Shown piece by piece: positions 2,080-17,757 of a stretch of 18,064 nucleotides of DNA; the first letter of the stretch is position 1; each line of letters opens with the position of its first letter. Origin of the DNA: Nitrospinota bacterium (GTDB lineage Bacteria; Nitrospinota; Nitrospinia; JACRGO01); NCBI GenBank assembly GCA_016212295.1, contig JACRGO010000034.1, positions 1 through 18,064 on the forward strand. The letters run 5' to 3'. The notes below the pieces were generated by a model. It did no database searches, had not been told where the DNA came from, and worked only from the letters and a program-made list of their open reading frames with translations. Made by a program: the position numbers and the translations under genes.

Positions 2080-2088
2080 TAAAAATTA

Positions 2089-2129: not shown

Positions 2130-2131
2130 AT

Positions 2132-2279
2132 AGCGCAACATGTCCGCAACCAAAATAAATTTCTATGTATTCAAACGTTCGATGATATTATTACATCCAG
2201 AATTTTACGTTTTCCACGTTAATTAAATCAGCGTTGAATGCTTCAAGAGAAATTTGTTTTGGTTGCGGACATGCGCGCT
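2132..2279. repeat. Inverted-repeat element: about 32-bp arms (2132-2164 and 2248-2279, about 29/32 complementary) separated by 83 bp. The left arm plus core (2132-2185) is repeated at 6286-6340
   Basis: Left arm AGCGCAACATGTCCGCAACCAAAATAAATTTCT versus the reverse complement of AGAAATTTGTTTTGGTTGCGGACATGCGCGCT. The ORF-track extension of fabH (MNASREICFGCGHARS...) is a translation of the right arm. Confidence 0.75.
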
Positions 2280-2335
2280 CCAAGAAGCGCTTTAAAAACT
2301 TGCGCGGAAAACGCAAATTTCTGGACGTAATATAT

Positions 2336-3316: not shown

Positions 3317-3431
3317 ATTTTTTTCAGCTTTCAGTATTCAGCAAAGGCATGGCAAAACTAAAAAAACAAATCCCTGGCCGCTGATTGCTGTGCGCTGAAA
3401 GCTTTTTGTGGTTTTTCGCGTCAAATTCCAC

Positions 3432-3437
3432 TATAAT
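3432..3437 (+). promoter_or_regulatory. Perfect TATAAT -10 hexamer upstream of the secreted-protein gene; no convincing -35
   Basis: TATAAT 35 bp upstream of the ATG at 3472. Implies the inserted gene may have its own promoter. Confidence 0.25.
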
Positions 3438-3471
3438 TTTTTTGATTTATAAACGGAGAGAAGGAAGAAAG

Positions 3472-4560: not shown

Positions 4561-4577
4561 TTTTAAAAAGAAAATAA

Positions 4578-5516
4578 ATGGCAACAAATTACGCCTTTCT
4601 CTTTCCCGGACAAGGGTCTCAGTATCCCGGCATGGGAAAGGAGCTGTGTGATAATTTTTCCGAGGCAAGGGAAGTCTTTGAGCAGGCCAACGAGGCCCTG
4701 GGATACGATCTCGCGTCCCTTTGCTTCCAAGGCCCGGAAGAGGAACTCAAGCAAACGGAAAAGACCCAGCCGGCCATCCTTACGGCCAGTATAGCGGCGG
4801 CGCGGGTATTGGAAAAGGAGGGCCTGAAACCGGCCATTACCGCCGGCCACAGTCTTGGGGAATATTCGGCGTTGGCCGCCGCTGGGTCCATCTCCTTCAT
4901 GGACGCGGCCAGGGTAACGGCCAAACGTGGGAGGTTCATGCAGGACGCCGTCCCGGACGGCGTTGGGGCAATGGCCGCCATCCTTGGACTGGAAAGCCGG
5001 AAAGTGGAAGAAATATGTTCGAGGGTTTCCAGGACCGGCAAGGTAAGCGCGGCCAATTATAACAGCCCTATCCAGGTGGTCATTGCCGGTGAAAAAAGCG
5101 CGGTGGAAGAGGCCATGGAGGAAGCCGGGAAGGAAGGGGCAAAGAAGATGGTCCTTCTGCCAATGAGCGTTCCTTCCCATTGCGATTTAATGGTCCCGGC
5201 GCGGGAAAGGTTGTCCCTGGAACTGGATAAAATATCCTTCGCGGACCCAAGTTTCCCGCTCATAGCCAATGTAAACGCCCTCGAAACCAGGAGCGGATTG
5301 GACGCAAGGAAAAACCTGAAAGGGCAGTTGACCAGCCCGGTCCGCTGGGTTGAGTCCATGGAAAGGATCGCTGGAGCAGTGAAAACCGTGATTGAGGTCG
5401 GACCCGGCAAGGTGCTCATCGGCCTCATGAAAAGGATCAATAAGGACATTCAATGCCTGAACGTTGAAGACATGCAAAGCCTTGAAAAGACCATGAATGC
5501 CATGAAAGAACATTGA
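4578..5516 (+). CDS. fabD: Malonyl-CoA:ACP transacylase (FabD)
   Basis: FLFPGQGSQYPGMGKEL and GHSLGEYSAL active-site motifs. 312 aa. Confidence 0.93.
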   Translation: MATNYAFLFPGQGSQYPGMGKELCDNFSEAREVFEQANEALGYDLASLCFQGPEEELKQTEKTQPAILTASIAAARVLEKEGLKPAITAGHSLGEYSALAAAGSISFMDAARVTAKRGRFMQDAVPDGVGAMAAILGLESRKVEEICSRVSRTGKVSAANYNSPIQVVIAGEKSAVEEAMEEAGKEGAKKMVLLPMSVPSHCDLMVPARERLSLELDKISFADPSFPLIANVNALETRSGLDARKNLKGQLTSPVRWVESMERIAGAVKTVIEVGPGKVLIGLMKRINKDIQCLNVEDMQSLEKTMNAMKEH

Positions 5517-5525
5517 CGGTTTATG

Positions 5526-5546
5526 ATTGACAATTGACGATTGAAC
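5526..5546. repeat. Heptamer tandem array ATTGACA-ATTGACG-ATTGAAC (contains two phased TTGAC -35-like hexamers)
   Basis: Three consecutive 7-mers read directly from the sequence. Confidence 0.7.
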
Positions 5547-5554
5547 CTTAAACA

Positions 5555-5589
5555 TTAAATCTTAAATCTTAAATCTTAAATTTTAAATC
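5555..5589. repeat. Heptamer tandem array (TTAAATC)x5 immediately upstream of the 5594 ORF
   Basis: TTAAATC TTAAATC TTAAATC TTAAATT TTAAATC. Confidence 0.85.
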
Positions 5590-5593
5590 CCTT

Positions 5594-6274
5594 ATGCTGG
5601 CAAACAGAGAAATAAAAACGAGACTGGAAAAGGCTTTCCCTATAAAACAGGCGGTGGCGCTGGCCGATGTTTTTATAGAATTCAAGGGAGACCTTGTCAA
5701 GTCTGGAGATTTCAACGAGCTTAAAAATGTAGTAAAAGAACTTGCCGAGGCTCAGAAGCGGACAGAAGTAAAAATGGGAGAACTTGCCGGCGCTCAGAAG
5801 AGGACAGAAGTAAAAATGGAAGAACTTGCCGAGGCGCAGAAACGGACGGATTATGAACTTGTCCTCTTTCGCCGCACTTTTACCTCTCAGATTGGAGGGC
5901 TTGGGGCGCGATGGGGTATGATGACGGAATCGTCGTTTCGCAACGCCATGGAGGGAATACTGTCAGAAGTTGGGTTCAAGGCCGAGAGGTTCATAGCTAA
6001 AGACAAAAAGGGGACAGTTTTCGGGTATCCGGCGGAAGTGGAGCTTGATGTTGTCGTTAAAAACGGCAAGACCCTGGTCATTGAGATTAAATCCTCGGTT
6101 AGCCGGGCGGACGCGGCCTCCTTTGACAAGAAGGTAAGCTTTTACGAGAAGGAGACACGGCGGAAGGCTAGCAGGAAGATAATTATATCTCCTTATACCG
6201 AGCCCGCGGCCCATGACGCCGCCAAAAGACTGGGGATCGAGGTTTTTACTGATATAAATGACCCGGCTTTGTAA
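5594..6274 (+). CDS. Coiled-coil-repeat plus PD-(D/E)XK-like nuclease-fold protein (DUF3782-like), inserted between fabD and fabG
   Basis: N-terminal 14-aa tandem repeats [14 protein letters not shown] x about 2.6. C-terminal [24 protein letters not shown] fits the D...(D/E)xK restriction-endonuclease-like core. No fab-pathway role. Confidence 0.55.
5738..5850 (+). repeat. In-frame 42-bp tandem repeat (about 2.6 copies) inside the 5594-6274 CDS
   Basis: Units 5738-5779 and 5780-5821 are near identical. The third unit diverges after about 27 nt. Confidence 0.85.
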
Positions 6275-6285
6275 CACAAACCCAC

Positions 6286-6340
6286 AGCGCGACGTGGCCG
6301 CAACCAAAATAAATTTTCGATGCATTCAAACGTTTCATGA
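6286..6340. repeat. Second copy (about 85% identical, one indel) of the 55-bp element seen at 2132-2185. A degraded right-arm remnant may lie at about 6406-6431
   Basis: AGCGCGACGTGGCCGCAACCAAAATAAATTTTCGATGCATTCAAACGTTTCATGA versus copy 1. Both copies lie just after a stop codon and upstream of a fab gene. Confidence 0.75.
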
Positions 6341-6418
6341 AGCCCCAAATTTCAATTGTCAGATAACAAATAAATCTCAATAACCAAAATTACAAAGAAA
6401 CAAAGAAATGAAATTGTT

Positions 6419-6447
6419 TTGGACATTCGGTAATTGTAATTTATAAT
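6419..6447 (+). promoter_or_regulatory. Candidate promoter TTGGAC-17-TATAAT upstream of fabG
   Basis: Perfect -10 TATAAT at 6442-6447 and a weak -35 at 6419-6424, in an AT-rich region about 130 bp upstream of fabG. Confidence 0.3.
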
Positions 6448-6574
6448 TTATTTGTCATTTGGGATTTCGTTTTCATTTTGGTTGAAGCGAAACCGCGCCA
6501 GGAAGCTTTGTGTCCTGGTGGCTTCGTGGCATATTTTTAATTAGAATCTTAACTGAAAGAAAGGTTTACCGAAA

Positions 6575-7318
6575 ATGAGTCTCGAAGGAAAAACCGCGTT
6601 AGTCACAGGGGCAGGCAGGGGAATCGGCAAGGCGATAGCCCTTGCCTTGGCCAAGGACGGGGCGAACGTGGCCGTGTCCGATATAGACCAGGGTTCCGCC
6701 AACCAAACCGCTGAAGAAATCAAATCCCTTGGAAGAGGCTCCATTGGATTGAAAGCGGACGTGTCCAGGTCCGAAGAGGTGGAGGGGATGTTTCAGGCAA
6801 TTGTGGACAAATTCGGCGGGGTTGATATACTGGTGAATAACGCCGGGATCACCAGGGACGGGTTACTGGTAAGAATGAAGGACGAGGATTGGAGCCTGGT
6901 CATGAAGATCAATCTGGACGGGGCCTTCTATTGCTCCAGGGCGGCCGGCAAGATCATGATGAAGCAAAGAAGAGGGGCCATAATCAACATCGCCTCAATC
7001 GTGGGGGTCATGGGAAACGCGGGCCAGGTGAATTATTCCGCGTCCAAGGCGGGCCTGATCGGCCTGACGAAATCCAGCGCACGGGAGCTTGCCTCAAGAG
7101 GGGTCACGGTAAACGCCATCGCCCCGGGTTTCATCGATACGGCAATGACACAGGCCCTGAACGATAAGGTAAAGGAAAAACTGATGGAGCAGATCCCGCT
7201 GGGCCGCTTGGGCTCCTCGGAGGACATCGCGAACGCGGTCCTCTTCCTTGCGTCTCCGGAAGCGGCCTATATAACCGGCCAGGTGCTCCATGTGAACGGG
7301 GGCATGCTGATGGCGTAG
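6575..7318 (+). CDS. fabG: 3-oxoacyl-ACP reductase (FabG)
   Basis: LEGKTALVTGAGRGIGKAIA Rossmann motif and SDR catalytic S...YSASKAG. 247 aa. Confidence 0.93.
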   Translation: MSLEGKTALVTGAGRGIGKAIALALAKDGANVAVSDIDQGSANQTAEEIKSLGRGSIGLKADVSRSEEVEGMFQAIVDKFGGVDILVNNAGITRDGLLVRMKDEDWSLVMKINLDGAFYCSRAAGKIMMKQRRGAIINIASIVGVMGNAGQVNYSASKAGLIGLTKSSARELASRGVTVNAIAPGFIDTAMTQALNDKVKEKLMEQIPLGRLGSSEDIANAVLFLASPEAAYITGQVLHVNGGMLMA

Positions 7319-7331
7319 GATGAGTTGTGAT

Positions 7332-7373
7332 GGTTCAGGGTTCAGGGTTCAGGGTTGAAGGTTGAAGGTTGAA
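7332..7373. repeat. Heptamer array (GGTTCAG)x3-(GGTTGAA)x3
   Basis: Read directly from the sequence. Imperfect inverted partner (AACCCAG)x3 at 7473-7492. Confidence 0.85.
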
Positions 7374-7472
7374 AGGGCATAATCACGGCAATATTGCATG
7401 TTTTTTTTTAGGGCATTCCACCTCGGATATAGCGCCGCTAAATAAAAATCCGCGTGGGTACGGGCTTTCTGA

Positions 7473-7492
7473 AACCCAGAACCCAGAACCAG
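7473..7492. repeat. Heptamer array AACCCAG x about 3, imperfect inverse of the 7332 array (one mismatch per unit)
   Basis: CTGAAACCCAGAACCCAGAACCAG. Confidence 0.7.
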
Positions 7493-7556
7493 TTAACGTT
7501 TACAAAAATTTTTTAACTATTAAATTAACATAAAAATCTTTTAAAGGAGGAAAAGG

Positions 7557-7787
7557 ATGGATACAGCGGAAAAAGTAAAGAATATCATCATGGAGCAGCT
7601 TGGAGTCGAAGAAGGCCAAGTGACCTCCGAGGCTTCCTTTATTGACGATCTAGGCGCGGATTCCCTGGACACAGTGGAACTCGTCATGGCCTTTGAAGAG
7701 GCATTTGACATTGAGATACCGGATGAGGAAGCGGAAAAAATCATTACGGTAAAAGACGCAGTGGACTATATTGAGAAGCATGTATAA
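7557..7787 (+). CDS. acpP: Acyl carrier protein
   Basis: 76 aa with the DSLD phosphopantetheine-attachment motif. AAGGAGG RBS. Confidence 0.95.
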
Positions 7788-9044
7788 GTGAAAGACCAAG
7801 TAAATCAAAGAAGAGTAGTGGTGACCGGGCTCGGCCTGGTGACCCCCCTGGGAATAGGGGTGAAGGAAACGTGGGAAGGAATTTGCGCTGGACGGTCCGG
7901 CATCGGACGCATCACCAAATTCGACCCGACGGATTACTCCTGCCAAATCGCCGGGGAGGTTAAGGGATTCGACCCGACCAATTACATGGACGCCAAGGAG
8001 GCCAGGAAGATGGACCCCTTCATCCATTACGCCATGGTCGCGGGCTCCTTTGCCGTGGAGGATTCCGGCCTCAAAATAACTCCTGAGAACGACACCAGGG
8101 TAGGCGTAAGCATCGGCGTGGGCATGGGCGGCCTTCCGGTTATTGAAAAATACCACGAGGTCGTCCTGGAACGTGGCCCCAGAAAAATCACGCCATTCTT
8201 CATCCCAATGCTTATCGCAAACATGGCGGCCGGCCATCTGTCGATGAAGTTCGGCGCCAAGGGGCCGAACTGTTGCAGCGCCACAGCCTGCGCCACCGGC
8301 ACCCACGCCATGGGCGATTCCTTTGAAATCATCCGCCGCGGCGACGCGGACGTCATGATCGCGGGCGGCGCTGAATCCGTTATCACGAAACTGGGGATCG
8401 GCGGGTTTTGCGCCATGAAGGCCCTGGCCGCGAAATACAACGGCCAGCCGGAAAAGGGAAGCCGCCCCTTTGACAGGGACCGCGACGGGTTTGTTATGGG
8501 TGAAGGCTCAGGCGTGATGGTGCTTGAGGAGTTGGAATCGGCCAAACGCAGAGGGGCCAGGATTTACGCGGAAATTGTGGGATACGGAATGAACGCCGAC
8601 GCCTATCACATGACCTTGCCCCCGCCGGAGGGAGAAGGCGCCGCCCGGTGCATGAACCTGGCCCTGAAAAAAGGAAATATCAGGCCGGAAGAGATTGATT
8701 ACATAAACGCCCATGGCACTGGAACAGCCGCGGACGTCCTGGAAACAAAGGCCATAAAGTCCGTCTTCGGCGGCCACGCATACAAGCTGGCGGTCAGCTC
8801 CACCAAGTCAATGACCGGACATCTCCTCGGGGCAGCCGGTGGAATAGAGGGCGTTTTTTCCGTTCTTGCCATTGAAAGGGGAGTCCTTCCCCCGACCATT
8901 AATTTAGAGAACCCCGACCAGGAATGTGACCTGGATTATGTCCCTAACCAATCCAGAAAAAAAGAAATAAATTTCGCACTTTCCAATTCCTTTGGATTCG
9001 GCGGGACCAACGCCTGCGTTATTTTCAAGAAATTTAATTCCTGA
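7788..9044 (+). CDS. fabF: 3-oxoacyl-ACP synthase II (FabF)
   Basis: GTG start abutting the acpP stop. RRVVVTGLGLVTPLG N-terminus. Cys-His-His triad context (ATACATG, HGTGT, GHLLGAAG). Confidence 0.92.
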   Translation: MKDQVNQRRVVVTGLGLVTPLGIGVKETWEGICAGRSGIGRITKFDPTDYSCQIAGEVKGFDPTNYMDAKEARKMDPFIHYAMVAGSFAVEDSGLKITPENDTRVGVSIGVGMGGLPVIEKYHEVVLERGPRKITPFFIPMLIANMAAGHLSMKFGAKGPNCCSATACATGTHAMGDSFEIIRRGDADVMIAGGAESVITKLGIGGFCAMKALAAKYNGQPEKGSRPFDRDRDGFVMGEGSGVMVLEELESAKRRGARIYAEIVGYGMNADAYHMTLPPPEGEGAARCMNLALKKGNIRPEEIDYINAHGTGTAADVLETKAIKSVFGGHAYKLAVSSTKSMTGHLLGAAGGIEGVFSVLAIERGVLPPTINLENPDQECDLDYVPNQSRKKEINFALSNSFGFGGTNACVIFKKFNS

Positions 9045-9861
9045 ATTTATCCAGTTCCCTCGTTGTTTCCTGGGCAATGATTTCCATCAAATCGCTTGAG
9101 ATTTTTGGGACAACTGAAGGGACGCATGGCATTCCGGCTGAGGAATGCTGGAGGGAGACGAACTTTCCCGACGGACACGCCTTGCACGATTCGCAGCGGG
9201 CGAGGATTTTCTTGGGCGGAAGGCCAAGCCCCTCGCCCACTTTCCGCAATTTTTCTATCTGGCCCTGAGACAAGGGATGCAGGTCCCCCAACTGCCTTGC
9301 CGCGTGGGTGATTTGCGCCACGTGCTCGATCCGCTCCAACAGATTATATGCGTCAAACACGGTGGCGCCAACTGTCAGGGACCCATGCCGTTCCAGCATG
9401 ATGGCGTCGAAATCCTTGATGTATTCCTGAATGGACTGCGGCACCTCGTCCGTTGTGGGGGTGGAATATGACGCGGTTGGAATGGATCCCAGTGTGAAGA
9501 CCACCTCCGGCAGCATGCACTTGGCCAGGGAGACTCCAGCCAACGTGAAGGCCACGCAATAGGTGGGATGAGCATGGACCACCGCCATGACGTCCGGCCT
9601 CATCCTGTAGCACTCCAGGTGCATCCTGATTTCAGACGAAGGACCGTATTGGCCGGATATCCGCGCACCCTCCATATCGATCACCACCAGGTCGCGCTCG
9701 TTAATGAAACCCTTATGGAGTTTGGTGGGAGTGGTGAGGACGCGGTTTCTGGGCAGGCGGAGGCTCACGTTGCCGTCGCTGGCCGCGATCCATCCCTTGT
9801 TGTACATCCTGCGGCAGACCTCCACTATGTCTTTTCTATGCTCTTCTTCGTTTTTTATCAT
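9034..9861 (-). CDS. Class II aldolase (FucA/RhaD/adducin-head family) with a C-terminal Cys-rich extension; BMC cargo candidate
   Basis: True start MIKNEEEHRKDIVEVCRRMYNKGW at 9861; the upstream MSLVTRHLSLISV is repeat-derived. HAHP metal-binding context. About 60-aa C-terminal tail with CESCKACPSGK...C and an amphipathic SSDLMEIIAQETTRELDKF. The 3' end overlaps the fabF 3' end convergently by 11 nt. Confidence 0.85.
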   Translation of the reverse strand: MIKNEEEHRKDIVEVCRRMYNKGWIAASDGNVSLRLPRNRVLTTPTKLHKGFINERDLVVIDMEGARISGQYGPSSEIRMHLECYRMRPDVMAVVHAHPTYCVAFTLAGVSLAKCMLPEVVFTLGSIPTASYSTPTTDEVPQSIQEYIKDFDAIMLERHGSLTVGATVFDAYNLLERIEHVAQITHAARQLGDLHPLSQGQIEKLRKVGEGLGLPPKKILARCESCKACPSGKFVSLQHSSAGMPCVPSVVPKISSDLMEIIAQETTRELDKFRN

Positions 9862-9872
9862 GACTGAAATCA

Positions 9873-9928
9873 GTGACAAGTGACGAGTAACAAGTGACAA
9901 GTGACAAGTGGCGAGTAACGAGTAAAAA
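9873..9928. repeat. Heptamer array A: GTGACAA GTGACGA GTAACAA GTGACAA GTGACAA GTGGCGA GTAACGA GTAAAAA
   Basis: Eight consecutive 7-mers. Preceded by TGACTGAAA. Confidence 0.9.
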
Positions 9929-9964
9929 ACGGAAAATGCCCCACTTGATCCATGCCTCTTGACA

Positions 9965-10237
9965 CTATCCCGAACAATTTATCTGATCCACTATAGCTGT
10001 AATGACCGAATGGACCGGCGCGGAGTCGTCTCCAAAAAGCTGCCTGGCCGCGTTCCCTTCCGGGGCAACCAGCACCGTGTCCCCTTCCCCTGCCTGCACA
10101 AAATCAACAGCCAGGAAGGAGCTTCCCGTTGGTTTCTGCTCCTGGTCCAGGGGCTGGACCACAAGGACCTTGTGCCCCTCGTAAGCCGGGTGCTTCAAGG
10201 TCGCGACGACATTTCCCAATACCTTGCAGATCAACAT
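9965..10237 (-). CDS. BMC vertex protein (EutN/PduN/CcmL family, BMC-P) copy 1
   Basis: MLICKVLGNVVATLKHPAYEGHKVLVVQP matches the PF03319 N-terminus. The ORF-track start at 10327 is an extension through the repeat array. Confidence 0.85.
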   Translation of the reverse strand: MLICKVLGNVVATLKHPAYEGHKVLVVQPLDQEQKPTGSSFLAVDFVQAGEGDTVLVAPEGNAARQLFGDDSAPVHSVITAIVDQINCSG

Positions 10238-10247
10238 TTTTTTCTTA

Positions 10248-10296
10248 GTGACCAGTGACGAGTAACGAGTGATCAGTGGCGAGTAACGAGTGACGA
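10248..10296. repeat. Heptamer array B1 (GTGACCA GTGACGA GTAACGA GTGATCA GTGGCGA GTAACGA GTGACGA)
   Basis: Seven 7-mers. Inverted partner B2 lies 24 bp away. Confidence 0.9.
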
Positions 10297-10320
10297 GTCT
10301 TAGAAGCATAGGTTTTTTAC

Positions 10321-10369
10321 TTGTCACTCGTCACTTGTCACTCGTCACTATTTATTTGTCACTCGTCAC
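10321..10369. repeat. Heptamer array B2 (TTGTCAC TCGTCAC TTGTCAC TCGTCAC TATTTAT TTGTCAC TCGTCAC), inverse of B1. The two form a palindrome of about 120 bp
   Basis: Reverse-complement orientation of B1. It contains the stop codon and last codons (..SSDE*) of the BMC-P gene at 10359-10637. Confidence 0.9.
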
Positions 10370-10637
10370 TGCTCCTTGCGTCTATATTGTCAACAATCCC
10401 GACGATACCGGCGTCTATGGGACTGAAGGTGTCCGGCAGAGTCAGGGCCGCCTCGCGTCCGACCACATAAGAGACGGTCTCGCCGATTCCGGCCTGTTGG
10501 GCGTCCACCATCACAAGAGGCTCTCCCTTGGGTTTTCGCTCGTGGTCCACCGGCTGCACCAGCAGGAGCTTGATTCCCTCCAGGCTTGGATGCTTCACCG
10601 TGGCCACCACCCGTCCTATTACTTTTCCTATGTGCAT
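10359..10637 (-). CDS. BMC vertex protein (EutN/PduN family, BMC-P) copy 2
   Basis: MHIGKVIGRVVATVKHPSLEGIKLLLVQPV. GGAG RBS. C-terminal tail encoded by repeat array B2. Confidence 0.85.
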   Translation of the reverse strand: MHIGKVIGRVVATVKHPSLEGIKLLLVQPVDHERKPKGEPLVMVDAQQAGIGETVSYVVGREAALTLPDTFSPIDAGIVGIVDNIDARSSDE

Positions 10638-10772
10638 GAAAAAACTCCAGCCACAAACTTTATTCAGTTTTCCCTTAATATATCAATAACTACGTTGACA
10701 ATTGAATTTATTGCGCCACTTTTTAGTTTGCCTATTTCAGAAATAATCAGTTTATTGTGAATGGTATTAATA

Positions 10773-10994
10773 CTACCGAGCCTTTTGAAAATGTTGCCAT
10801 GCCTCATCCTCCTCTGGACGGTTCCAATCTTCCGCGAGGGCTGTTTCGCTTAACAAGGCTTCCTCATTTACATGAATTAAAGGTTCCTCATCAAGAATCG
10901 TGACTAATGCACGGCAGGATGAAGACAGTTTAATCGGTTCAGACAACTTAATATTGCCTTTTAGATCAATTGTTGCTTCAAGTATGCGGACCAT
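10773..10994 (-). CDS. Small AF2212/AbrB-like, antitoxin-like protein (73 aa), orphan
   Basis: True start MVRILEATIDLKGNIKLSEPIKL...ALVTILDEE with AGGAGG 7 nt upstream; the ORF-track TTG start translates the RBS. C-terminal LSETALAEDWNRPEEDEAW resembles the tails of type II antitoxins that pair with PIN toxins. No toxin gene is adjacent. Confidence 0.4.
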   Translation of the reverse strand: MVRILEATIDLKGNIKLSEPIKLSSSCRALVTILDEEPLIHVNEEALLSETALAEDWNRPEEDEAWQHFQKAR

Positions 10995-11066
10995 ATTAGG
11001 CCTCCTTTTTTTCAAATAAATATGCTTTTATTTAATGAAATCAAATATACACATTTCTTGATAGAG

Positions 11067-11078
11067 TAGCAATTGCTA
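11067..11078. promoter_or_regulatory. Perfect 12-bp palindrome TAGCAATTGCTA flanked by inverted TGATAG/CTATCA hexamers; candidate operator
   Basis: About 70 bp upstream of the 10994 start codon on the - strand. Confidence 0.3.
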
Positions 11079-11084
11079 TCACAA

Positions 11085-11630
11085 TTAGAGCAATTTAAAA
11101 TTCAAATCCGCATGGGGGGCGGGGATGATCTCCTTTGCAACCAGGGTCCCCCCTTCCATTAAATTCCTGATCCCTGCCTCTATCGCGGCTTCCACCTCGG
11201 AGATGTCGCCGGTCAGGGTGTAAAACGATTTTCCGCCAAGGCCGTTGGCAAGGCGCAGCTCGATGAGGTCCACCTTCGCCGCCTTCACCGCCGTGTCGGC
11301 TGAAACAATGGCCGAGGCCACTGAGAAGGTCTCCACTATCCCCAATGCCGCAAGTCCCGCCACCTCGGTGCATGCCTCCATTGCCGGGATGACCTGCCCA
11401 TGTACCTGGGGCAGAAAAAGTTCGTCCACCACAAGTTCTGCCCCTATGCTTATCCCCTCCCTGACGGCTTCCTCGACCGAGGCAACGTCGCCGCGCACAA
11501 GGACCATGTACTTTCCGGGGCACACGGTCCTTGCTTCCATGAGCTTCACCGGGGCCTTTTTCATCATGGCGTCGCAAACCCGTATTCCCCTGGCAACGCT
11601 TCTTAGTTCTATTAATCCTATAGCTTCCAT
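11085..11630 (-). CDS. Tandem BMC-domain shell protein (BMC-T, PduT-like)
   Basis: Two PF00936-like halves: MEAIGLIELRSVARGIRVCDAMMKKA... and LAALGIVETFSVASAIVSADTAVKAAKV.... 181 aa. Confidence 0.8.
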   Translation of the reverse strand: MEAIGLIELRSVARGIRVCDAMMKKAPVKLMEARTVCPGKYMVLVRGDVASVEEAVREGISIGAELVVDELFLPQVHGQVIPAMEACTEVAGLAALGIVETFSVASAIVSADTAVKAAKVDLIELRLANGLGGKSFYTLTGDISEVEAAIEAGIRNLMEGGTLVAKEIIPAPHADLNFKLL

Positions 11631-11638
11631 TAATTATC

Positions 11639-11672
11639 CACGTTATCAGTTCACGGTTTACGGTTCACGGTT
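11639..11672. repeat. Heptamer array CACGTTA TCAGTT CACGGTT TACGGTT CACGGTT; left boundary of the four-helix-bundle cassette
   Basis: Inverse partner AACCGTG array at 12042-12069. Contains the stop codon of the 11665-12015 gene. Confidence 0.85.
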
Positions 11673-12015
11673 TTTTCAATGAATCATGCAAGGCTTGCAA
11701 CATTTTTGATATGGATTTCAACTCATTAATCAAACCTTTTGCGTCACTGTCGGAAAATACGTTAATTTCCCTTGAAATATAAACTTGTGTCCGCAGTTCC
11801 GCCGCCGAGCCTTTTGCAATGTTTATAAACCTTTGAAAATCTGGAACACTGTTTCTTTCGCACCCTTCCGCGATATTCGATGGAATAGATACGGATGAGC
11901 GCAACATTTGATCTTTCAGCCCATAATCACGGCAATCTTTTAATAATTTATAGAGGGTTACTGTCAGTCTGCAAGATTTTTTCCAAACTTCTAAATTCTC
12001 AAAGGAAGCGCTCAT
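11665..12015 (-). CDS. Four-helix-bundle protein (23S rRNA intervening-sequence protein / Avd-like family, TIGR02436-type), intact copy
   Basis: LEVWKKS...LKDQMLRSSVSIPSNIAEG..R.S..DFQRFINIAKGSAAELRTQVYIS matches the family consensus. Flanked by inverted CACGGTT/AACCGTG heptamer arrays. Confidence 0.85.
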   Translation of the reverse strand: MSASFENLEVWKKSCRLTVTLYKLLKDCRDYGLKDQMLRSSVSIPSNIAEGCERNSVPDFQRFINIAKGSAAELRTQVYISREINVFSDSDAKGLINELKSISKMLQALHDSLKKP

Positions 12016-12041
12016 AACCTTTTTCTATTTTCTGCTTCACC

Positions 12042-12069
12042 AACCGTGAACTGTGAACCGTGAACCGTA
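12042..12069. repeat. Heptamer array AACCGTG AACTGTG AACCGTG AACCGTA; right boundary of the four-helix-bundle cassette
   Basis: Reverse complement of the 11639-11672 array. Confidence 0.85.
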
Positions 12070-12090
12070 AACAATTTTCTTATTTTATGT

Positions 12091-13425
12091 CTACCTGCTT
12101 TCAATTCCCACATACCTCCCGTTCACCTCCGCCACTGTCCCGTCCATGGAGGCGTGGACTCTGGCGCCCATTTTTCCCTCCGGTATCTCGCCCACCAATT
12201 GGCCTTGCTTCACCTTGTCCCCTGTCTTCACCACAGGGACGGCGGCCGCGCCGATATGCTGCCTCAAGGGAATTTTTACATTGGTGAAGGGAAAATCCCT
12301 TTCTTCCCATTCGGGGTGGACGTCGTATTCCTTTAGACCCAGCCTTTGAATCAACCGGTCCTTGGGGATTTTCCTGTAGTCGCGGTATTGGTCCTGGGCC
12401 AGGCCGCTTCGTGAATGCGGGTTCTTTATCCCTGCCCCGGCTAGGCGTCCCTTGAATTCCCTGAAAACAACGCGGGGAGAAAGGGCCATGGGACAGGCAT
12501 AGAGGTCGCATACCCCGCATTCACAACAGAGAAAGGCGCGGGTTATTGTGTCGGTGTCAAGGTCCCGATCATAGTCTATTACCCGCATAATCTTGTGCGG
12601 CTCAAGACTATGCCCCTGGAGCCAGCGGGGACAAAAATCAGTGCAGTAGCGGCACTGCTCGCAAATTGATTTGGACATGCGCGCCTCTGTGGCCACTGTC
12701 CTGCTTCTTCGCATTACGTAAGGGTGGTCCTTTGGGAGCACGATGATCCCGGAGGTGGTCTTCGTGACCGGCTCCCCGCAATCCCCTGCCAACCGTCCCA
12801 TCATGGGTCCCCCCACCAGAATAACGTAATCCTCTATCCTGGCCCCGCCGCACAGCGCTATGAGGTCCTTGAAAGAAACGCCGATAGGGACCCGCAGGAC
12901 CCTTGGCCAGTTGACCTCTCCGCATACCGTTATCCGCTGGCGGACCACGGGTTCGCCGTGGAAGGCGCGGTGGATGTTGAGCAGGGTGTTGACGTTATTC
13001 ACCAAGACGCCCACATGCAAGGGAAGGCCGCCTTCGGGAATTATTCTTCCAGCGGCGTCCAGGACCAAAACATGCTCATCGCCCGCCGGGTAATAATTCC
13101 CCATTTCATGCAGCCTGATATTTTTTTCGGAGGCTGCTGCCTGGGAAAGCGATTTTACCGCTTCGTGATAATGGGCCTTGACAGCGATAATCCCCTGTCC
13201 GGCACCAACTGCCTCCATCACGAGCTTGACGCCGGAGACGATCTCGTCCGCCGCCGTCTCCATGGTCCTCTGGTCCGTGCAGAGAAGGGGCTCGCATTCC
13301 GCTCCATTGGCGATCACTATCTCAGCCCTGGCGTTGATCTTTACGTGGGTTGGAAACCCAGCCCCTCCGGCGCCCACCACTCCGGCGTTTTTAACTTTTT
13401 CTATTAATTGTTCGCGAAAACGCAT
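12091..13425 (-). CDS. PduS/RnfC-like Fe-S flavoprotein oxidoreductase (BMC-associated)
   Basis: True start MRFREQLIEKVKNAGVVGAGGAGFPTHVK with the RnfC/NqrA-type GAGGAGFP motif. Two 4Fe-4S motifs, CEQCRYCTDFCP and CCECGVCDLYACP. The ORF-track start at 13521 runs through repeat array C (LLVTRHLSLVT). Confidence 0.85.
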   Translation of the reverse strand: MRFREQLIEKVKNAGVVGAGGAGFPTHVKINARAEIVIANGAECEPLLCTDQRTMETAADEIVSGVKLVMEAVGAGQGIIAVKAHYHEAVKSLSQAAASEKNIRLHEMGNYYPAGDEHVLVLDAAGRIIPEGGLPLHVGVLVNNVNTLLNIHRAFHGEPVVRQRITVCGEVNWPRVLRVPIGVSFKDLIALCGGARIEDYVILVGGPMMGRLAGDCGEPVTKTTSGIIVLPKDHPYVMRRSRTVATEARMSKSICEQCRYCTDFCPRWLQGHSLEPHKIMRVIDYDRDLDTDTITRAFLCCECGVCDLYACPMALSPRVVFREFKGRLAGAGIKNPHSRSGLAQDQYRDYRKIPKDRLIQRLGLKEYDVHPEWEERDFPFTNVKIPLRQHIGAAAVPVVKTGDKVKQGQLVGEIPEGKMGARVHASMDGTVAEVNGRYVGIESR

Positions 13426-13435
13426 TTGAATGATA

Positions 13436-13498
13436 GTGACTGAAAGATAGTGACAAGTGACAAGTGACAAGTGACGAGTGACAAGTAAAAAGTAAAAA
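13436..13498. repeat. Heptamer array C (GTGACTG..GTGACAA x3 GTGACGA GTGACAA GTAAAAA GTAAAAA)
   Basis: Inverted partner D at 13571-13619, 72 bp away. Confidence 0.9.
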
Positions 13499-13570
13499 CT
13501 TATAGCTCTTTGGGCGGACAAAAAAAATCAATGGCCAGGGATCAGTACCGGCTCCTGGATTCTTTTCTAC

Positions 13571-13619
13571 TCGTCACTCGTCACTTGTCACTCGTTACTG
13601 CTTCTCGGTAACTCGTCAC
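13571..13619. repeat. Heptamer array D (TCGTCAC TCGTCAC TTGTCAC TCGTTAC ... TCGTCAC), inverse of C
   Basis: Ends 4 bp from the aldehyde dehydrogenase stop codon. Confidence 0.9.
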
Positions 13620-13623
13620 TGCT

Positions 13624-15114
13624 TCAAACAATTCTAAACCTGTCCTTCAAAGTACAGCGGCGCTCCCTTGTGAAGTGGACGGCGGTGGTCAGGCCCTCTC
13701 CGGTGGGGCTGGCTATGGTGAAGGACGTATACCCTTCCCCGGTGAAGCCCAATCCGGCGTATGAAGGTCCGTTCTTCACGAAGATGGAGGTGTTGATTTC
13801 CCGCGCCATGCGGCTCAGCTTGTCGATGTTTCTGGAGTGCATCACCGCCGTGTGGCCGAACCCGTGCTCCACCTCCTTGGCCAGGTCAATGGCGGCGTCC
13901 GCGTCCTTGACCCTAACCAACGGAATCAAAGGCATGAGAAGTTCCATCTGGACAAAGGGATGGCCGGCGTCCGTCTCGGCGATGATCAACCGGATATCCT
14001 CCCCGACGTTGACGCCGATCTCCTTCAGGATAACCGCCGCGTCCTTTCCCACGAATTTCTTGTTAACCACTCCGTGGGAGCCGTCAACCGGCGGCTCCTG
14101 GATAATAAGCTTCCGCATCTGGCGGATTTGCTGCTGGTTCAACTCGTAGCAGCCGTTTCGCTTGAGGGCGGATTTCAGGGAATCCGCTATTGAGGCCACT
14201 GCTATGATCTCCTTTTCCACTATGCAGACCATGTTGTTGTCGAATGACGCGCCGTTTACTATGTCAACCGCCGCGTTTTCGATGTCCGCTGTCTCGTCCA
14301 CCACCACAGGCGGATTACCTGGTCCGGCGGCGATCACCTTCTTTCCTGAATTCATGGCGGCCTTGACCACCGCGGGTCCGCCGGTGACCACCAATAACCG
14401 TATGCCGGGATGCTCCATGAGTTCCCTGGCCGATTGAATGGTCGGCTCTGATATAGTGGTTATGAGGTCCCTGGGACCGCCCGCCTTGGCTATGGCCCTG
14501 TTGAGGAGATCGACTGAATAAATGGAGATTTTTTTAGCGGTCGGGTGGGCGTTGAACACCACCGCGTTTCCCCCGGCCAGCATGCTCACCGCGTTGTTGA
14601 AGATCGTCGCGAAGGGATTTGTGCATGGGGTGATGGACCCTATGACGCCGTAAGGGGCGCGTTCCACCAACGTGAGTCCGTTATCGCCCGTGTAGCTGAC
14701 TGGTTGCAGTATTTCCAGTCCAGGCGTTTTTTCTATTGACAACCTGTTTTTCAGCGCCTTGTCCTTGACCCGGCCCATGCCTGTCTCTGACACCGCCATC
14801 TCCGCGAGTTTTTGCGCCTCTTCCAGGGCGGTTGATCGCATGGAGGCGATGATCCCGCCACGAAGGGACAAGGGCATACTGCTAAGTTCCGCGAAGGCCT
14901 TCGCGGCGGCAAGGACCGCTGAATTAATATCGCCGAACACTCCAAGCCCCTCGCCCTTGCTTTCCTTAGCGGATGAGGACGGACAGCCGTGAGGCGGATT
15001 GAACGCCGCCTGGGGCTTCGAGGGACCTGGAGCGCTAATGGTCTGCCCGCTCCATATCCTTTCAGCAACCCTTCTCACTATTGAGGCAATCTGGTCTTCT
15101 GTAAGTTGTGTCAT
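13624..15114 (-). CDS. CoA-acylating aldehyde dehydrogenase (PduP/EutE-like BMC core enzyme) with N-terminal encapsulation-peptide-like helix
   Basis: 496 aa. ALDH catalytic region ...MVCIVEKE.../...GEGYTSFTIASPTGEG. N-terminal amphipathic EDQIASIVRRVAERI followed by a Pro/Ser/Gly linker before GVFGDINSAV. Confidence 0.88.
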   Translation of the reverse strand: MTQLTEDQIASIVRRVAERIWSGQTISAPGPSKPQAAFNPPHGCPSSSAKESKGEGLGVFGDINSAVLAAAKAFAELSSMPLSLRGGIIASMRSTALEEAQKLAEMAVSETGMGRVKDKALKNRLSIEKTPGLEILQPVSYTGDNGLTLVERAPYGVIGSITPCTNPFATIFNNAVSMLAGGNAVVFNAHPTAKKISIYSVDLLNRAIAKAGGPRDLITTISEPTIQSARELMEHPGIRLLVVTGGPAVVKAAMNSGKKVIAAGPGNPPVVVDETADIENAAVDIVNGASFDNNMVCIVEKEIIAVASIADSLKSALKRNGCYELNQQQIRQMRKLIIQEPPVDGSHGVVNKKFVGKDAAVILKEIGVNVGEDIRLIIAETDAGHPFVQMELLMPLIPLVRVKDADAAIDLAKEVEHGFGHTAVMHSRNIDKLSRMAREINTSIFVKNGPSYAGLGFTGEGYTSFTIASPTGEGLTTAVHFTRERRCTLKDRFRIV

Positions 15115-15121
15115 TGTCTAA

Positions 15122-15409
15122 TTACTTCTTAAACACCAACTTATCGTCGATGTCCCATTGGTCCACTATGGCCATTATGACAGCGTCTACTGGTTTATTA
15201 TTGGTTATGTCCGTTTGCCTCGCCGAACTTCCAGTGGCGTAGAGCACTATCTCTCCCTGGCCCGCGCCGACGGAGTCGGCCGCCACCACATAGTTCTGGC
15301 CGGCCTTCCCCCTGGAATCAACGCCAGCCACAAGCTGGAGCTTGAGGCCCTCCAGCTTAGGGTCTTTCTGGGAGGCGACAACCGTCCCAACCACTTTTCC
15401 GAATAACAT
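15122..15409 (-). CDS. BMC vertex protein (EutN/PduN family, BMC-P) copy 3
   Basis: [34 protein letters not shown] 8 nt upstream. The ORF-track start at 15445 would overlap the BMC-H gene. Confidence 0.85.
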
Positions 15410-15419
15410 GAGCGGTCTC

Positions 15420-15710
15420 CTATTCCGTAGCGTTCGAGCGCCCAAGCGGGAGGGCCTTGTCGATATTGAGGTGCGGCCTTGGAATCACGTGGACGGACAC
15501 CAACTGCCCGACCTTCTCAGCGGCGCGGGAGCCGGCCTCGGTGGCGGCCTTGACCGCCGCGACGTCTCCCCTCACTATGGCGGTGACGTAGCCGCCGCCG
15601 GTTTTTTCGTATCCGACCAACTCAACCTTGGCCGCCTTGACCATGGCGTCCGACGCCTCAACCATGGCGGTGAAACCCCGCGTTTCTATCATTCCCAATG
15701 CTTCAGCCAT
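15420..15710 (-). CDS. BMC-H hexameric shell protein (PduA/EutM-like)
   Basis: [56 protein letters not shown] is a canonical PF00936 sequence. GGAGG RBS. Confidence 0.93.
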
Positions 15711-15768
15711 AAAAAAACCTCCTTATAAAAAGTTAAATTAATAAAATTCGTAACTACTCATGTTATCC

Positions 15769-15839
15769 GGTTCAGGGTTCAGGGTTCAGGGTTCAGAGTT
15801 CCCGGTTGAAAGCTTTGTGGCCTTTGTGCCTTTGTGGTG
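15769..15839. repeat. Heptamer array (GGTTCAG)x4-like followed by the octamer-like repeat CTTTGTGG CCTTTGTG CCTTTGTG in the BMC-T/BMC-H intergenic gap
   Basis: Same GGTTCAG unit as at 7332. Confidence 0.8.
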
Positions 15840-15845
15840 AAAAAA

Positions 15846-16472
15846 TTATTTTTTCTTCAACGCCACTCCCTCCAAACCGGAAAGCGCGGTGATCGCGGCC
15901 TCCGCCGCTGAGTCTATTTCCGATTCCGACCCGGACATATAAAGCCTCCCATAGGCGCCGAAGGGACGCACCTCAACAAGTTTTACATTCGCCGCCTTTT
16001 CCGCCTCGTTCGCGCCGAAGATAACGTATCCGGCAGGCTCAGTCTCCAGTATGAAGAGCGATTCGCCCGGAAGGATCATGGACCCGCTCCGGTTACGATT
16101 GATAAGTTGGCATTGATACGCCTCCATCGCGCGGATGATCTGGTTTGAGACGATGTCCGGCTTGATCCGGTCCGACTCCTTGATCTCCAGGTAGTCCAGG
16201 ATGGACTGTCCCGCCAGCCTCACCTCCCCCTTGTCGTGCTCGTGGACTTCCAATACCCCGTAGGCCCGCTCCACGATCTGGACCGCCGGCTGGACCTTGG
16301 TGGCCTTCAAGGCCACATCCAGGACCTTGTTGATTGCGAGTCCGGGCGCTATTTCAACAAAGAGCGACGCCACTCCAGGCACCGGGAGGAACCCCTTGGC
16401 CGTGGACCCTATATAAGAGGCCAGTTGAGCTTGAAGACTGTCCAGAAAAACATAAGTGCGCAGGGTTATCAT
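15846..16472 (-). CDS. Permuted tandem BMC-domain shell protein (BMC-T, PduB/EutL-like)
   Basis: 208 aa with two permuted-BMC halves ([19 protein letters not shown]... and ...[30 protein letters not shown]...) paralleling the EutL architecture. GGAGG RBS. Confidence 0.7.
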
Positions 16473-16491
16473 TGTTTAATCCTCCATTTTA

Positions 16492-16528
16492 AGTGACTAT
16501 AAAACCAGTGACCAGTGACGAGTAATTA
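16492..16528. repeat. Heptamer array E (GTGACTA...GTGACCA GTGACGA GTAATTA)
   Basis: Overlaps the stop codon of the 16526-16807 gene. Inverse partner F at 16827-16847. Confidence 0.8.
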
Positions 16529-16807
16529 GTTTGTGCTCCTCAAGGAGCGTTGTAAGCCAATAATCATTTTTGAAATTTCGTCCAGTTCTTCCAATAAACT
16601 ATTTTCAATTCGCGACTCCAGGAGTTGTAAATTTTTACTTATGATGATTTGTGTTTCCAGTTCCGCTATATTAGATGGAATGGATACGGCCGCTCGCCGC
16701 ATTTGGGATAGCAGGCCAAATTTCTCTTCCGAAGGAAAGGAAGCAATCTGTTCCACAAAGCTGATTGACCTTTTCCATACCTCCAGGCGCTTATGCGGCT
16801 TTCCCAT
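16526..16807 (-). CDS. Four-helix-bundle protein (Avd-like / 23S-IVS family), second copy with an internal deletion of about 20 aa; possibly degenerate
   Basis: MGKPHKRLEVWKRS...FGLLSQMRRAAVSIPSNIAE|LETQIIIS lacks the G..R.S..DF..F..IA.GS segment present in the copy at 11665-12015. True ATG at 16807 with GGAGGG RBS; the track start at 16840 is repeat-derived. Confidence 0.65.
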   Translation of the reverse strand: MGKPHKRLEVWKRSISFVEQIASFPSEEKFGLLSQMRRAAVSIPSNIAELETQIIISKNLQLLESRIENSLLEELDEISKMIIGLQRSLRSTN

Positions 16808-16826
16808 GAAATCCCTCCCTTTTAAC

Positions 16827-16847
16827 TCGTCACTTGTCACTCGTCAC
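16827..16847. repeat. Heptamer array F (TCGTCAC TTGTCAC TCGTCAC), inverse of E
   Basis: Read directly from the sequence. Confidence 0.85.
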
Positions 16848-16853
16848 TATCTT

Positions 16854-17723
16854 CTAATACTGTTTCGCCACGATCGCGTCCTCTATCTTCCTCGTGTTGG
16901 CCAGGGTGCGCTGCCGGTTCGTCATGCCGATCGTTATATACAGCACGTCAATGATGCTTGACTGCGCGATCCTCGAGGCAAGGGCCTCGCTCCGGTATTT
17001 GGTCTCCTTGGAAGAGGTCACGAGGACCACGTCCGCTACCTTTGCCAGGGGCGAAAGGGAATTATTAGTGATTGCTATCGCCTTGACCCCGTTTTTCCTG
17101 GCGACTTCTATTGTGTCTATGGGGTCCCTGGTGCTCCCGGAATGGGAGATGGCAAGGACTAGGTCGCCCTTTCTCAATAGCGCGGCCTCCATCATCTGGA
17201 GGTGGCTGTCGTTTTGATAGGAGCACCAAAGCCCAAGCCTCAGGAATTTATTAAAGGCGTCAAAAAGGATGGGGGTGGAGGTCCCGACCCCGATTATCAG
17301 AATTTTTTTCGCCTTGCTCAACAGCTTCACGGCTTCCCCGACGGCCTCCGGCTTCAGCGCCTCCAGGGTGCTTTGCAGGGTCTCGATGTTGGCGGAAAAG
17401 ACCTTGCGGATGATGGTGGCCGTCCCGTCCCTTTCGCTCACGTCCTCATGTATGGCGTGGTGGATGGGAGATACAAGGTCCCGCGCCAAATTAATCTTCA
17501 GGTCCTGAAAGCCCCTGTATCCCATGGTCCTGCAGAAACGGATCACGGTCGCCTCGCTGGCCCCGGCGCCGATTGCCACTTCGCTCACCGACTGGTCAAG
17601 AACGCCCTGCGCGTTGCCGAGCGCGTATTCCGCCACTTTTTTCTCCGCCGAGTGAAGTGACGGCAGCATGCCCCTCAGTCTGGCAAGACAATTTTCCCTT
17701 GGGGCCGCTTGGGTCTTCAGCAT
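16854..17723 (-). CDS. RpiR/MurR-family transcriptional regulator (HTH plus SIS sugar-phosphate-binding domain)
   Basis: LHSAEKKVAEYAL...SEATVIRFCRTMGYRGFQDLK is an RpiR-type HTH. The SIS domain shows IGVGTS...ISHSGST. ATG at 17723 preferred; the track GTG at 17738 overlaps the -10 box. Confidence 0.85.
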   Translation of the reverse strand: MLKTQAAPRENCLARLRGMLPSLHSAEKKVAEYALGNAQGVLDQSVSEVAIGAGASEATVIRFCRTMGYRGFQDLKINLARDLVSPIHHAIHEDVSERDGTATIIRKVFSANIETLQSTLEALKPEAVGEAVKLLSKAKKILIIGVGTSTPILFDAFNKFLRLGLWCSYQNDSHLQMMEAALLRKGDLVLAISHSGSTRDPIDTIEVARKNGVKAIAITNNSLSPLAKVADVVLVTSSKETKYRSEALASRIAQSSIIDVLYITIGMTNRQRTLANTRKIEDAIVAKQY

Positions 17724-17729
17724 GATGAA

Positions 17730-17757
17730 ATTATACACGGAAAAAATTTCTTGTCAA
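17730..17757 (-). promoter_or_regulatory. Strong sigma70-like promoter TTGACA-16-TATAAT for the RpiR gene; the ATG lies 6 nt after the -10, so the mRNA is probably leaderless
   Basis: - strand TTGACA corresponds to 17752-17757 and TATAAT to 17730-17735. Confidence 0.55.

Follow-up and report, generated by a model that had tools for sequence, protein, structure and literature searches.

What are the tandem heptamer arrays that stand between the genes of a bacterial microcompartment (BMC) operon in an 18,064-nt stretch of Nitrospinota DNA (GCA_016212295.1, contig JACRGO010000034.1; hereafter the window), and why do they come in inverted pairs? The answer we favor, with a probability of roughly 60%, is that the arrays make up the inverted arms at the ends of S23p-type intervening-sequence cassettes, and of derivatives of these cassettes that contain no open reading frame (ORF), which fold into long RNA stems. 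A cassette consists of (G-rich heptamer)n, a small four-helix-bundle gene, and (complementary C-rich heptamer)n, and lies between cistrons in the orientation of the host genes. The window contains one intact cassette with GTTCACG arms, one decaying cassette with GTGACNA arms (arrays E and F), and hairpins without an ORF, some belonging to the GTGACNA family (B1/B2 with A; C/D) and some to other families. Heptamer arrays of an unexplained kind and the S23p intervening sequence in rRNA were known already; the cassettes inside protein-coding operons and the statistical link of the S23p family to inverted heptamer arrays are new.

The pattern GTGACNAGTGACNA (two units, at most one mismatch) occurs 22 times in the window, always within 9873-16847, against 0.01 occurrences expected from 200 shuffles. 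The units of this main family are GTGACGA, GTGACAA, and GTAACGA with their complements, and Tandem Repeats Finder (TRF) reported period 7 and its multiples 14 and 21, in near-perfect tandem units in intergenic positions. A first-pass annotation of the window had described arrays A to F, with B1/B2 between the two EutN (pduN) genes and C/D between the aldehyde dehydrogenase (AldDH) and PduS-like genes; all were confirmed, at 9871-16850. The arrays, and the two genes of the S23p (23S_rRNA_IVP) family that lie among them, are as follows, operon sense being the minus strand.

9871-9930: array A, about eight GTGACNA units on the plus strand, that is, TNGTCAC (C-rich arm) in operon sense, between EutN-1 and the aldolase
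10247-10298: array B1, C-rich arm (operon sense) of the EutN-2/EutN-1 hairpin
10312-10371: array B2, G-rich 5' arm (operon sense) of the same hairpin
11642-11674: 3' arm (operon sense) of the IVP1 cassette, CGTGAAC/CGTAAAC heptamers
11665-12015, minus strand: IVP1, intact S23p/23S_rRNA_IVP/four-helix-bundle gene, 116 aa, co-oriented with the operon
12038-12076: 5' arm (operon sense) of the IVP1 cassette, GTTCACG/GTTTACG heptamers
13435-13498: array C, arm of the ORF-less hairpin in the AldDH/PduS spacer
13499-13563: C/D loop, 65 nt, no ORF
13564-13620: array D, partner arm of C
16492-16531: array E, 3' arm (operon sense) of the IVP2 cassette
16526-16807, minus strand: IVP2, truncated S23p/IVP gene, 93 aa, between E and F
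16819-16850: array F, 5' arm (operon sense) of the IVP2 cassette

The BMC operon covers bases 9034-17738 of the minus strand (8,705 nt) and is transcribed in the order RpiR-type regulator, CcmP/CsoS1D-like tandem BMC protein, BMC-H, EutN, aldehyde dehydrogenase, PduS/RnfC-like flavoprotein, tandem BMC protein, EutN-2, EutN-1, and class II aldolase. Arrays are 3-17 heptamers long, differing between orthologous sites, and array A decays into GTAAAAA at one end. All pairs in the window are convergent (inverted) with the G-rich array first. The B and C/D pairs had been called exact, whereas complementarity is 79-90% across the pairs: 79% over 52 nt for B1/B2, 89% over 36 nt or 80% over 45 nt for C/D, 90% over 20 nt for E/F, and 84% over 31 nt for the arms of the IVP1 cassette. 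The best partner of array A is B2 (60 nt, 85%), a pairing that encloses the whole EutN-1 gene.

Folding predictions bear out the earlier suggestion of long stems between cistrons. The B region folds at -64.9 kcal/mol in operon sense and -73.5 kcal/mol on the other strand (z=-9.5 and -11.7 against shuffles, respectively), and the C/D region at -76.6 and -75.1 kcal/mol (z=-8.3 and -7.0), far better than shuffles in every case. The whole IVP1 and IVP2 elements fold at -122.2 kcal/mol (z=-4.1) and -100.5 kcal/mol (z=-2.6), respectively, and in both the minimum-energy and centroid folds the terminal arms pair and the ORF is left in the loop. The longest predicted stems have up to about 34 contiguous pairs. 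Two observations on coding sequence made in the first pass also stand: array B2 supplies the stop codon (10359-10361) and ...SSDE tail of EutN-2, and mechanical extension of ORFs through the arrays yields false ...LVTRHLSL... peptides. The TGA stop of IVP1 is likewise supplied by the first CGTGAAC unit of its 3' arm. No Rfam family, rRNA included, matches the window.

IVP1 matches Pfam PF05635 (3e-35), TIGR02436 (4e-34), and PDB 2GSC (XCC0516; 1e-19), and its G+C fraction is 0.38 vs about 0.55 in the host genes. IVP2 has a Pfam match of 1.1e-18 in two stretches and, in alignment with its counterparts in a related operon (L121, below), carries in-frame deletions of 12 nt and 69 nt. Domain searches of the window proteins also gave weak bAvd/Avd matches. 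Inserted genes and spacers in general form AT-rich islands (G+C 0.33-0.42 vs about 0.55 in host genes). Neither IVP gene had been noticed earlier: the arms E and F are present as described, but they bracket the 93-codon ORF of IVP2 and are not an empty palindrome, and the intact IVP1 with its GTTCACG/CGTGAAC arms was overlooked together with the other heptamer families. With these families included the 18-kb window has at least 13 arrays across two operons, the second being a plus-strand fatty acid synthesis (FAS) operon at bases 1-9030 (rpmF, plsX, fabH, fabD, fabG, acpP, fabF). The GTGACNA arrays of the window all lie within the BMC operon, but heptamer arrays as such are not restricted to it, since other families occur in the FAS operon.

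5526-5592: ATTGACA and CTTAAAT arrays, directly upstream of an inserted DUF3782/PD-(D/E)XK ORF
7325-7490: ORF-less hairpin in the fabG/acpP spacer, GGTTCAG/GGTTGAA at 7325-7381 and inverted AACCCAG at 7473-7490
15762-15808: solo GGTTCAG array in the CcmP-like/BMC-H spacer

Related loci were reached through homologues of the PduS-like protein, whose nearest named homologues are in Nitrospinae/Nitrospinota genomes (about 55% identity), and four were informative: L121, L122, L123, and L265 (PduS identity 92%, 73%, 70%, and 55%, respectively). The corresponding operon of L121 carries three IVP genes, all of them intact and all flanked by inverted heptamer arrays. The copy at the E/F site has GTGACNA arms; the copy at AldDH/PduS is flanked by 17 + 10 GTGACNA units where the window has the ORF-less C/D, the outer flanks of the two sites being in common; and the copy at PduS/BMC-T, the IVP1 site, has TCTAAAA arms and represents a subfamily that BLAST does not relate to the gene of the window. 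At the site of the window's solo GGTTCAG array, L121 has a GAACATC/GATGTTC inverted pair. In L122 a degraded copy of the TCTAAAA-type IVP gene was found, and short GTAACGA/TCGTCAC arms of about two units each at AldDH/PduS, where L123 has an empty GTGACNA/TNGTCAC hairpin, a clear inverted pair. Arrays also occur outside the BMC operon in L121 (1081-1163) and L123 (21043-21079). Unit counts at orthologous sites differ (about 17 in L121 vs about 8 in the window), and multi-unit blocks are duplicated. Non-orthologous cassettes re-use the spacers, and a gene may be present or absent at a fixed hairpin.

The two L121 copies with GTGACNA arms are 92% identical to each other. Together with IVP2 they make three GTGACNA-type copies with 85-88% DNA identity, dS of 0.6-0.8, and dN/dS of 0.04-0.08; the dN/dS values indicate that the protein is under purifying selection, and the dS values that the copies are old. 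A recent duplication of the L121 copies is ruled out by the same identity and dS. Decayed IVP copies were seen in the window (IVP2), L122, and L060. No target-site duplication was recognisable on comparing filled with empty sites. A viral contig from the sample that yielded L121 (L243) proved unrelated.

In the Nitrospinae operon of L265 the genes stand in identical order and either overlap or are 3-27 nt apart, and 17 kb of the locus contain no period-7 array; operon lengths are 6,875 nt (L265), 8,705 nt (window), and 10,098 nt (L121). Because arrays and IVP genes are absent from this compact operon, the inserted material is specific to the clade of the window, and the hairpins came in later and are dispensable to the operon. 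The first-pass annotation had asked for such a comparison and held that arrays absent elsewhere, and with no structure-dependent difference in transcript abundance, would be incidental slippage products; as they recur at corresponding spacers in relatives, and in many phyla besides, that dismissal fails.

The association of S23p genes with period-7 arrays extends beyond this clade. Metagenome contigs were scanned with the IVP alignment, giving 80 loci (L124-L203; 45-62% identity) that are the best tblastn matches to one IVP subfamily. Period-7 arrays lie at most 200 nt from the gene in 51 of them, at a density of 2.68 per kb near the gene vs 0.22 per kb elsewhere in the same loci; around the genes periods 5, 6, 9, 10, and 11 hardly occur, and period 8 ranks second as a minor component. 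Arrays were found in 50 of 116 IVP-adjacent spacers vs 13 of 96 others (odds ratio 4.8, p=2e-6), and in 37 of 69 loci the upstream and downstream flanks were more complementary than 99% of non-cognate pairs (p=1e-24). The heptamer unit is locus-specific, with distal arrays sharing the unit of the IVP flank in 66% of cases within a locus vs 5.7% between loci. Of 40 upstream arrays 36 are G-rich, and of 41 downstream arrays 37 are C-rich; among 45 loci, 33 have the IVP gene oriented like both neighbors and 3 have it opposed to both. The XCC0516-type gene of X. campestris (XCC0516 being the member of the family whose crystal structure is solved) stands between accB and accC with GGGAATC GGGAGTG GAGAATC GGGAATC upstream and CCCATTC CCCATTC ... 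CCTATTC downstream. No literature linking S23p genes in general to heptamer arrays was found (subscription literature was outside the scope).

The GTGACNA unit itself is widespread. One genome per species was scanned for four perfect units, giving at least 120 stretches (L001-L120). The matches listed span many phyla, chiefly Pyrinomonadaceae and other Acidobacteriota, along with Scytonema and other cyanobacteria, Chloroflexota, Bacteroidota, Clostridia, Verrucomicrobiota, Omnitrophota, and others. Among these listed GTDB matches, pairs are ordered (GTGACNA)n-loop-(TNGTCAC)n in 51 cases vs 4 in the reverse order, with loops mostly of 13-125 nt, and 55 stretches of viral contigs (L210-L264) add 8 pairs with the G-rich arm first vs 0, for a combined 59 vs 4 (59/63) among the matches listed. 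A G-rich, C-poor array at the 5' side and a C-rich array at the 3' side is thus the rule here, as in about 90% of S23p flanks; by the symmetry of inverted arms the order holds on both strands and is independent of gene orientation. The ORF-less hairpins among the matches listed show no context preference (26 co-directional, 6 convergent, and 5 divergent, about background). Nothing relevant to the GTGACNA unit was found in the literature (subscription literature again being outside the scope).

An explanation of the arm order as a three-frame ribosome stop was considered, as all-frame stops are present in 50% of 5' arms vs 22% of 3' arms. It was dropped when random heptamer arrays of equal composition gave 46%, which makes the stops a by-product of composition. 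The idea that every GTGACNA array adjoins an IVP gene is also false, given the counts of IVP genes below. In one Chloroflexia stretch (L074, 3592-4204) a GTGACGA/TCGTCAC pair surrounds a 550-nt loop with a small opposite-strand ORF that is not an IVP gene; heptamer hairpins can therefore hold other cargo.

Two bodies of earlier work meet in these elements. The 23S rRNA intervening sequence (IVS) of Coxiella has an S23p ORF in the loop of a 28-bp stem of terminal inverted repeats, with 3-4 tandem GACAGAT heptamers, variable in number, upstream of the ORF; it is cut out by RNase III and its ORF is decaying (Warrier et al.; PMC4990558). IVP1 and IVP2 resemble the S23p IVSs of Coxiella, Leptospira, and others in having a PF05635 ORF in the loop in sense orientation and terminal inverted repeats that would form a long stem around it (arms 31 nt long with 84% complementarity in IVP1, and 20 nt long with 90% in IVP2), and Coxiella in particular in the variable-copy tandem heptamers beside an ORF prone to decay. 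They differ in location, since the known IVSs are in helix 25 or 45 of 23S rRNA and those described here are in spacers of protein-coding operons. Pairs B and C/D enclose no such ORF, and ORF-less versions are common here; cleavage by RNase III, documented for Coxiella, is for these spacers a presumption by analogy.

Tandem heptamers are reportedly the most abundant periodic repeat of prokaryotic intergenic DNA, with no known function (PMC6344855). Xanthomonas genomes have 70-75 convergent pairs of GGGAATC arrays each, in positions conserved between species, for which Rehm et al. found no regulatory role and in whose account S23p is not mentioned (PMC4692102); in Beggiatoaceae, TAACTGA direct repeats stand just upstream of start codons without a ribosome-binding site (RBS) (MacGregor; PMC4679880). 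These arrays, and the GGGGATT arrays and short tandemly repeated repetitive sequences (STRR) of Nostoc/Anabaena, are like those of the window in being 7-nt, tandem, mostly intergenic, genome-specific, and copy-variable, and the Xanthomonas arrays share the convergent orientation of all window pairs. The unit here is GTGACNA, however, the papers on heptamer repeats draw no link to S23p, and the TAACTGA sets are nearly all direct, not inverted.

For the ORF-less hairpins the best functional analogue is the Correia element (CREE/nemis) of Neisseria, a small non-autonomous inverted-repeat element that forms an RNA hairpin; Correia inverted repeats are co-transcribed and bind RNase III, by which they are cut or protected (PMC2649163). 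[quoted passage not shown] PF05635 is homologous to Avd, a pentameric four-helix-bundle protein of diversity-generating retroelements (DGRs) (PMC10053308). The window differs from a DGR in having no reverse transcriptase, template, or variable repeat: the Pfam scan gave no reverse transcriptase domain in any window ORF, and no long direct repeats occur apart from the heptamer arrays and a coding 42-mer. Avd genes have not been described with heptamer flanks.

The architecture itself, an S23p intervening sequence set into operon spacers with ORF-less derivatives beside it, is shown by these data; the mechanism is an inference. Under the cassette reading, transcription of the operon would allow each pair to fold into an imperfect double-stranded RNA stem of about 30-50 bp, which RNase III may cleave as it does the Coxiella 23S rRNA intervening sequence. 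Such cleavage would cut the polycistronic RNA at these spacers and leave half-stems on the new ends. Slippage would alter the length of the arrays, and the arrays would offer homology for cassette exchange among hairpins of one heptamer family. Any effect on microcompartment stoichiometry, which the first-pass annotation had put forward as a function, would be a by-product. Its other proposal, that the pairs are ends of an element, comes nearer, in that they are inverted terminal arms of cassettes, though the associated gene is S23p and no transposase gene was seen in the window or the four related loci.

Several results weigh against this reading. An IVP gene is near the array in only 1 of the 120 GTDB loci listed, where it is bracketed by arrays inside a sulfate-transporter operon, and in none of the 55 viral stretches. 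ORF-less hairpins are the common form, and arrays evidently persist and spread where no gene is near; the IVP gene could be a passenger retained in hairpin loops and not the origin of the hairpins. The C/D loop has no similarity to IVP genes, and its interpretation as the deletion remnant of one was rejected for that reason. The 64% of S23p loci with a nearby array holds for the one subfamily sampled, and the part assigned to RNase III is drawn from Coxiella by analogy. Arm-duplex energy over 69 S23p loci was better for the sense strand in 33 and for the antisense strand in 36 (p=0.51), and pair B of the window folds better on the antisense strand; with no strand asymmetry in stem stability, nothing points to selection on the sense RNA specifically.

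If the cassette reading is set one step further, S23p genes may be the autonomous partners of intergenic heptamer arrays, their protein acting in trans on hairpins of the cognate heptamer (in mobility, array maintenance, or RNA processing), with ORF-less hairpins and solo arrays as non-autonomous derivatives. We regard this as a tentative proposal, with perhaps a minority chance of being right. Were it true, the cassettes would be a new mobile class that colonises rRNA helices and operon spacers alike, and the "prime-number periodicity" of bacterial intergenic repeats, unexplained in the literature, would have an explanation.

The alternatives divide over whether RNA, DNA, or neither is what matters. 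The first-pass annotation had likened the arrays to repetitive extragenic palindromes and the mosaics built of them (REP/BIME), and in that case uncut hairpins would block 3' exonucleases so that upstream RNA segments outlive downstream ones, setting the shell-to-cargo ratio. REP sequences are indeed intergenic, palindromic, and multi-copy and affect segmental mRNA stability, and the stems here are long, stable, placed between cistrons, kept in position in four related genomes, and followed by no U-tract, hence not terminators (none of 15 terminator-like sites in the window coincides with an array). REP, however, consists of one imperfect palindrome, 20-40 nt long, that a REP-associated tyrosine transposase (RAYT) mobilises, with no heptamer period and no S23p, whereas the arms here are variable-length heptamer arrays with no single conserved palindromic unit of about 20-40 nt, and a RAYT gene (tnpA_REP) was not among the Pfam-scanned window ORFs or the called genes of L121-L123. 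Since a compact operon works without hairpins (L265), the hairpins occur in the FAS operon too and elsewhere in all gene contexts at about background proportions, and stems of up to about 34 contiguous pairs are usual RNase III substrates, we think stabilisation an unlikely account. About as unlikely, in our estimate, is that the arrays act at the level of DNA, as binding or recombination sites, for example for a pentameric S23p protein, in cassette movement or copy-number change, with the RNA structure incidental. Avd homologues bind nucleic acids, as is established for the DGR Avd protein, and this account would suit the lack of sense/antisense asymmetry, the different heptamers carried by IVP subfamilies within one genome (GTGACNA vs TCTAAAA in L121), the non-orthologous cassettes in one spacer of the window and L121, and the sharing of the flank unit by distal arrays (66% vs 5.7%). 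It does not sit well with the finding of no recombinase, transposase, or reverse transcriptase in any of the loci, nor with the lack of a recognisable target-site duplication; the co-orientation of IVP genes with host genes (33:3) is expected if a host transcript is needed, and the 59:4 arm order among the matches listed is a single-strand polarity that duplex binding does not predict without extra assumptions.

That the arrays simply arise and grow by slippage in any tolerant spacer, with inversion and neighboring genes of no function, is improbable. The large differences in unit count at orthologous sites, the duplicated multi-unit blocks, and the decay of gene copies (IVP2, L122, L060, Coxiella) are what slippage would give, but slippage does not make complementary arrays on both sides of a gene, and it leaves the arm order among the matches listed, the specificity for period 7, and the presence of one unit in many phyla unexplained. 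GTGACNA-type arrays are moreover retained at AldDH/PduS in the window, L121, L122 (about two units per arm), and L123. Least probable is the suggestion of the first pass that the pairs are ends of a transposon recognised as hairpins by a RAYT/IS200-type HUH or tyrosine transposase. Inverted arms and a dispersed, multi-copy distribution would fit such ends, yet no gene of this kind was seen in the window or the four related loci or turned up in the 120 listed and 55 viral array loci, which were inspected for the IVP model only; the co-occurring gene is S23p, and the arms vary in length and unit, unlike a fixed recognition hairpin. A role of the arrays as promoters or terminators was also considered and dropped, as only 2 of 13 promoter-like sites touch arrays, through a TTGTCA resembling a -35 box.

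The cassette reading joins two unexplained things, the S23p family and the heptamer arrays: whether in operons or in 23S rRNA, an S23p gene typically lies between inverted heptamer arrays peculiar to its locus, and hairpins of the same heptamer family are found without an ORF too. We know of no function for S23p proteins, the structure of which has been solved. In the annotation of such genomes, the cassettes account for false N-terminal extensions, for stop codons that come from repeats, and for the inflated length of operon spacers.

The spacers of the BMC operon collect selfish genes. A 445-nt AT-rich insert between the tandem BMC gene and EutN-2 (10640-11084) contains an 80-aa antitoxin-like ORF (weak RelN-antitoxin match) and a 47-aa ORF, and the matching spacer of L121 (8891-9648) has an intact VapB + PIN toxin-antitoxin pair. 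In a further locus (L266) an MjaI-type restriction-modification pair lies directly upstream of PduS. Inserts are present in the FAS operon as well. Between fabD and fabG lies a DUF3782 + PD-(D/E)XK nuclease ORF (5594-6274, plus strand; 226 aa) with a 42-nt coding repeat in 2.7 copies (5736-5847), preceded by the ATTGACA/CTTAAAT heptamer arrays and followed by a 300-nt AT-rich spacer (G+C 0.33). Between fabH and fabD a 362-aa ORF (3472-4560, plus strand) has a signal-peptide-like N-terminus and weak SdrD-B/carboxypeptidase-regulatory-like domains, an uncommon insertion for an operon of this type. A perfect sigma-70 consensus (TTGACA, 16 nt, TATAAT) heads the BMC operon at 17757-17730 on the minus strand. 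Since the GTG start called mechanically for the RpiR gene overlaps with this consensus, the true start is probably further downstream.

Two other kinds of repeat occur in the spacers. A family of about 55 nt (AGCGCRACRTGKCCGCAACCAAAATAAATTT...ATTCAAACGTT) is present in two FAS-operon spacers, at 2132-2185 and 6286-6340, with inverted partners at 2248-2273 (26 nt, 96%) and 6472-6498 (27 nt, 74%), respectively; unrelated to the heptamers, the element is a hairpin or MITE-like. Three spacers contain short CTTTGTGG(C)-type 8-9-mer repeats, at 15813-15837 (after the GGTTCAG array), about 6503-6530 (before fabG), and about 3395-3420 (after fabH). Several genes that begin right after a C-rich heptamer arm have no recognisable Shine-Dalgarno sequence, e.g. 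CACTATCATTCAAATG; the starts in question are 9861 (aldolase), 10237 (EutN-1), 11630 (tandem BMC), and 13425 (PduS-like), and they recall the Beggiatoaceae TAACTGA arrays upstream of RBS-less starts (PMC4679880).

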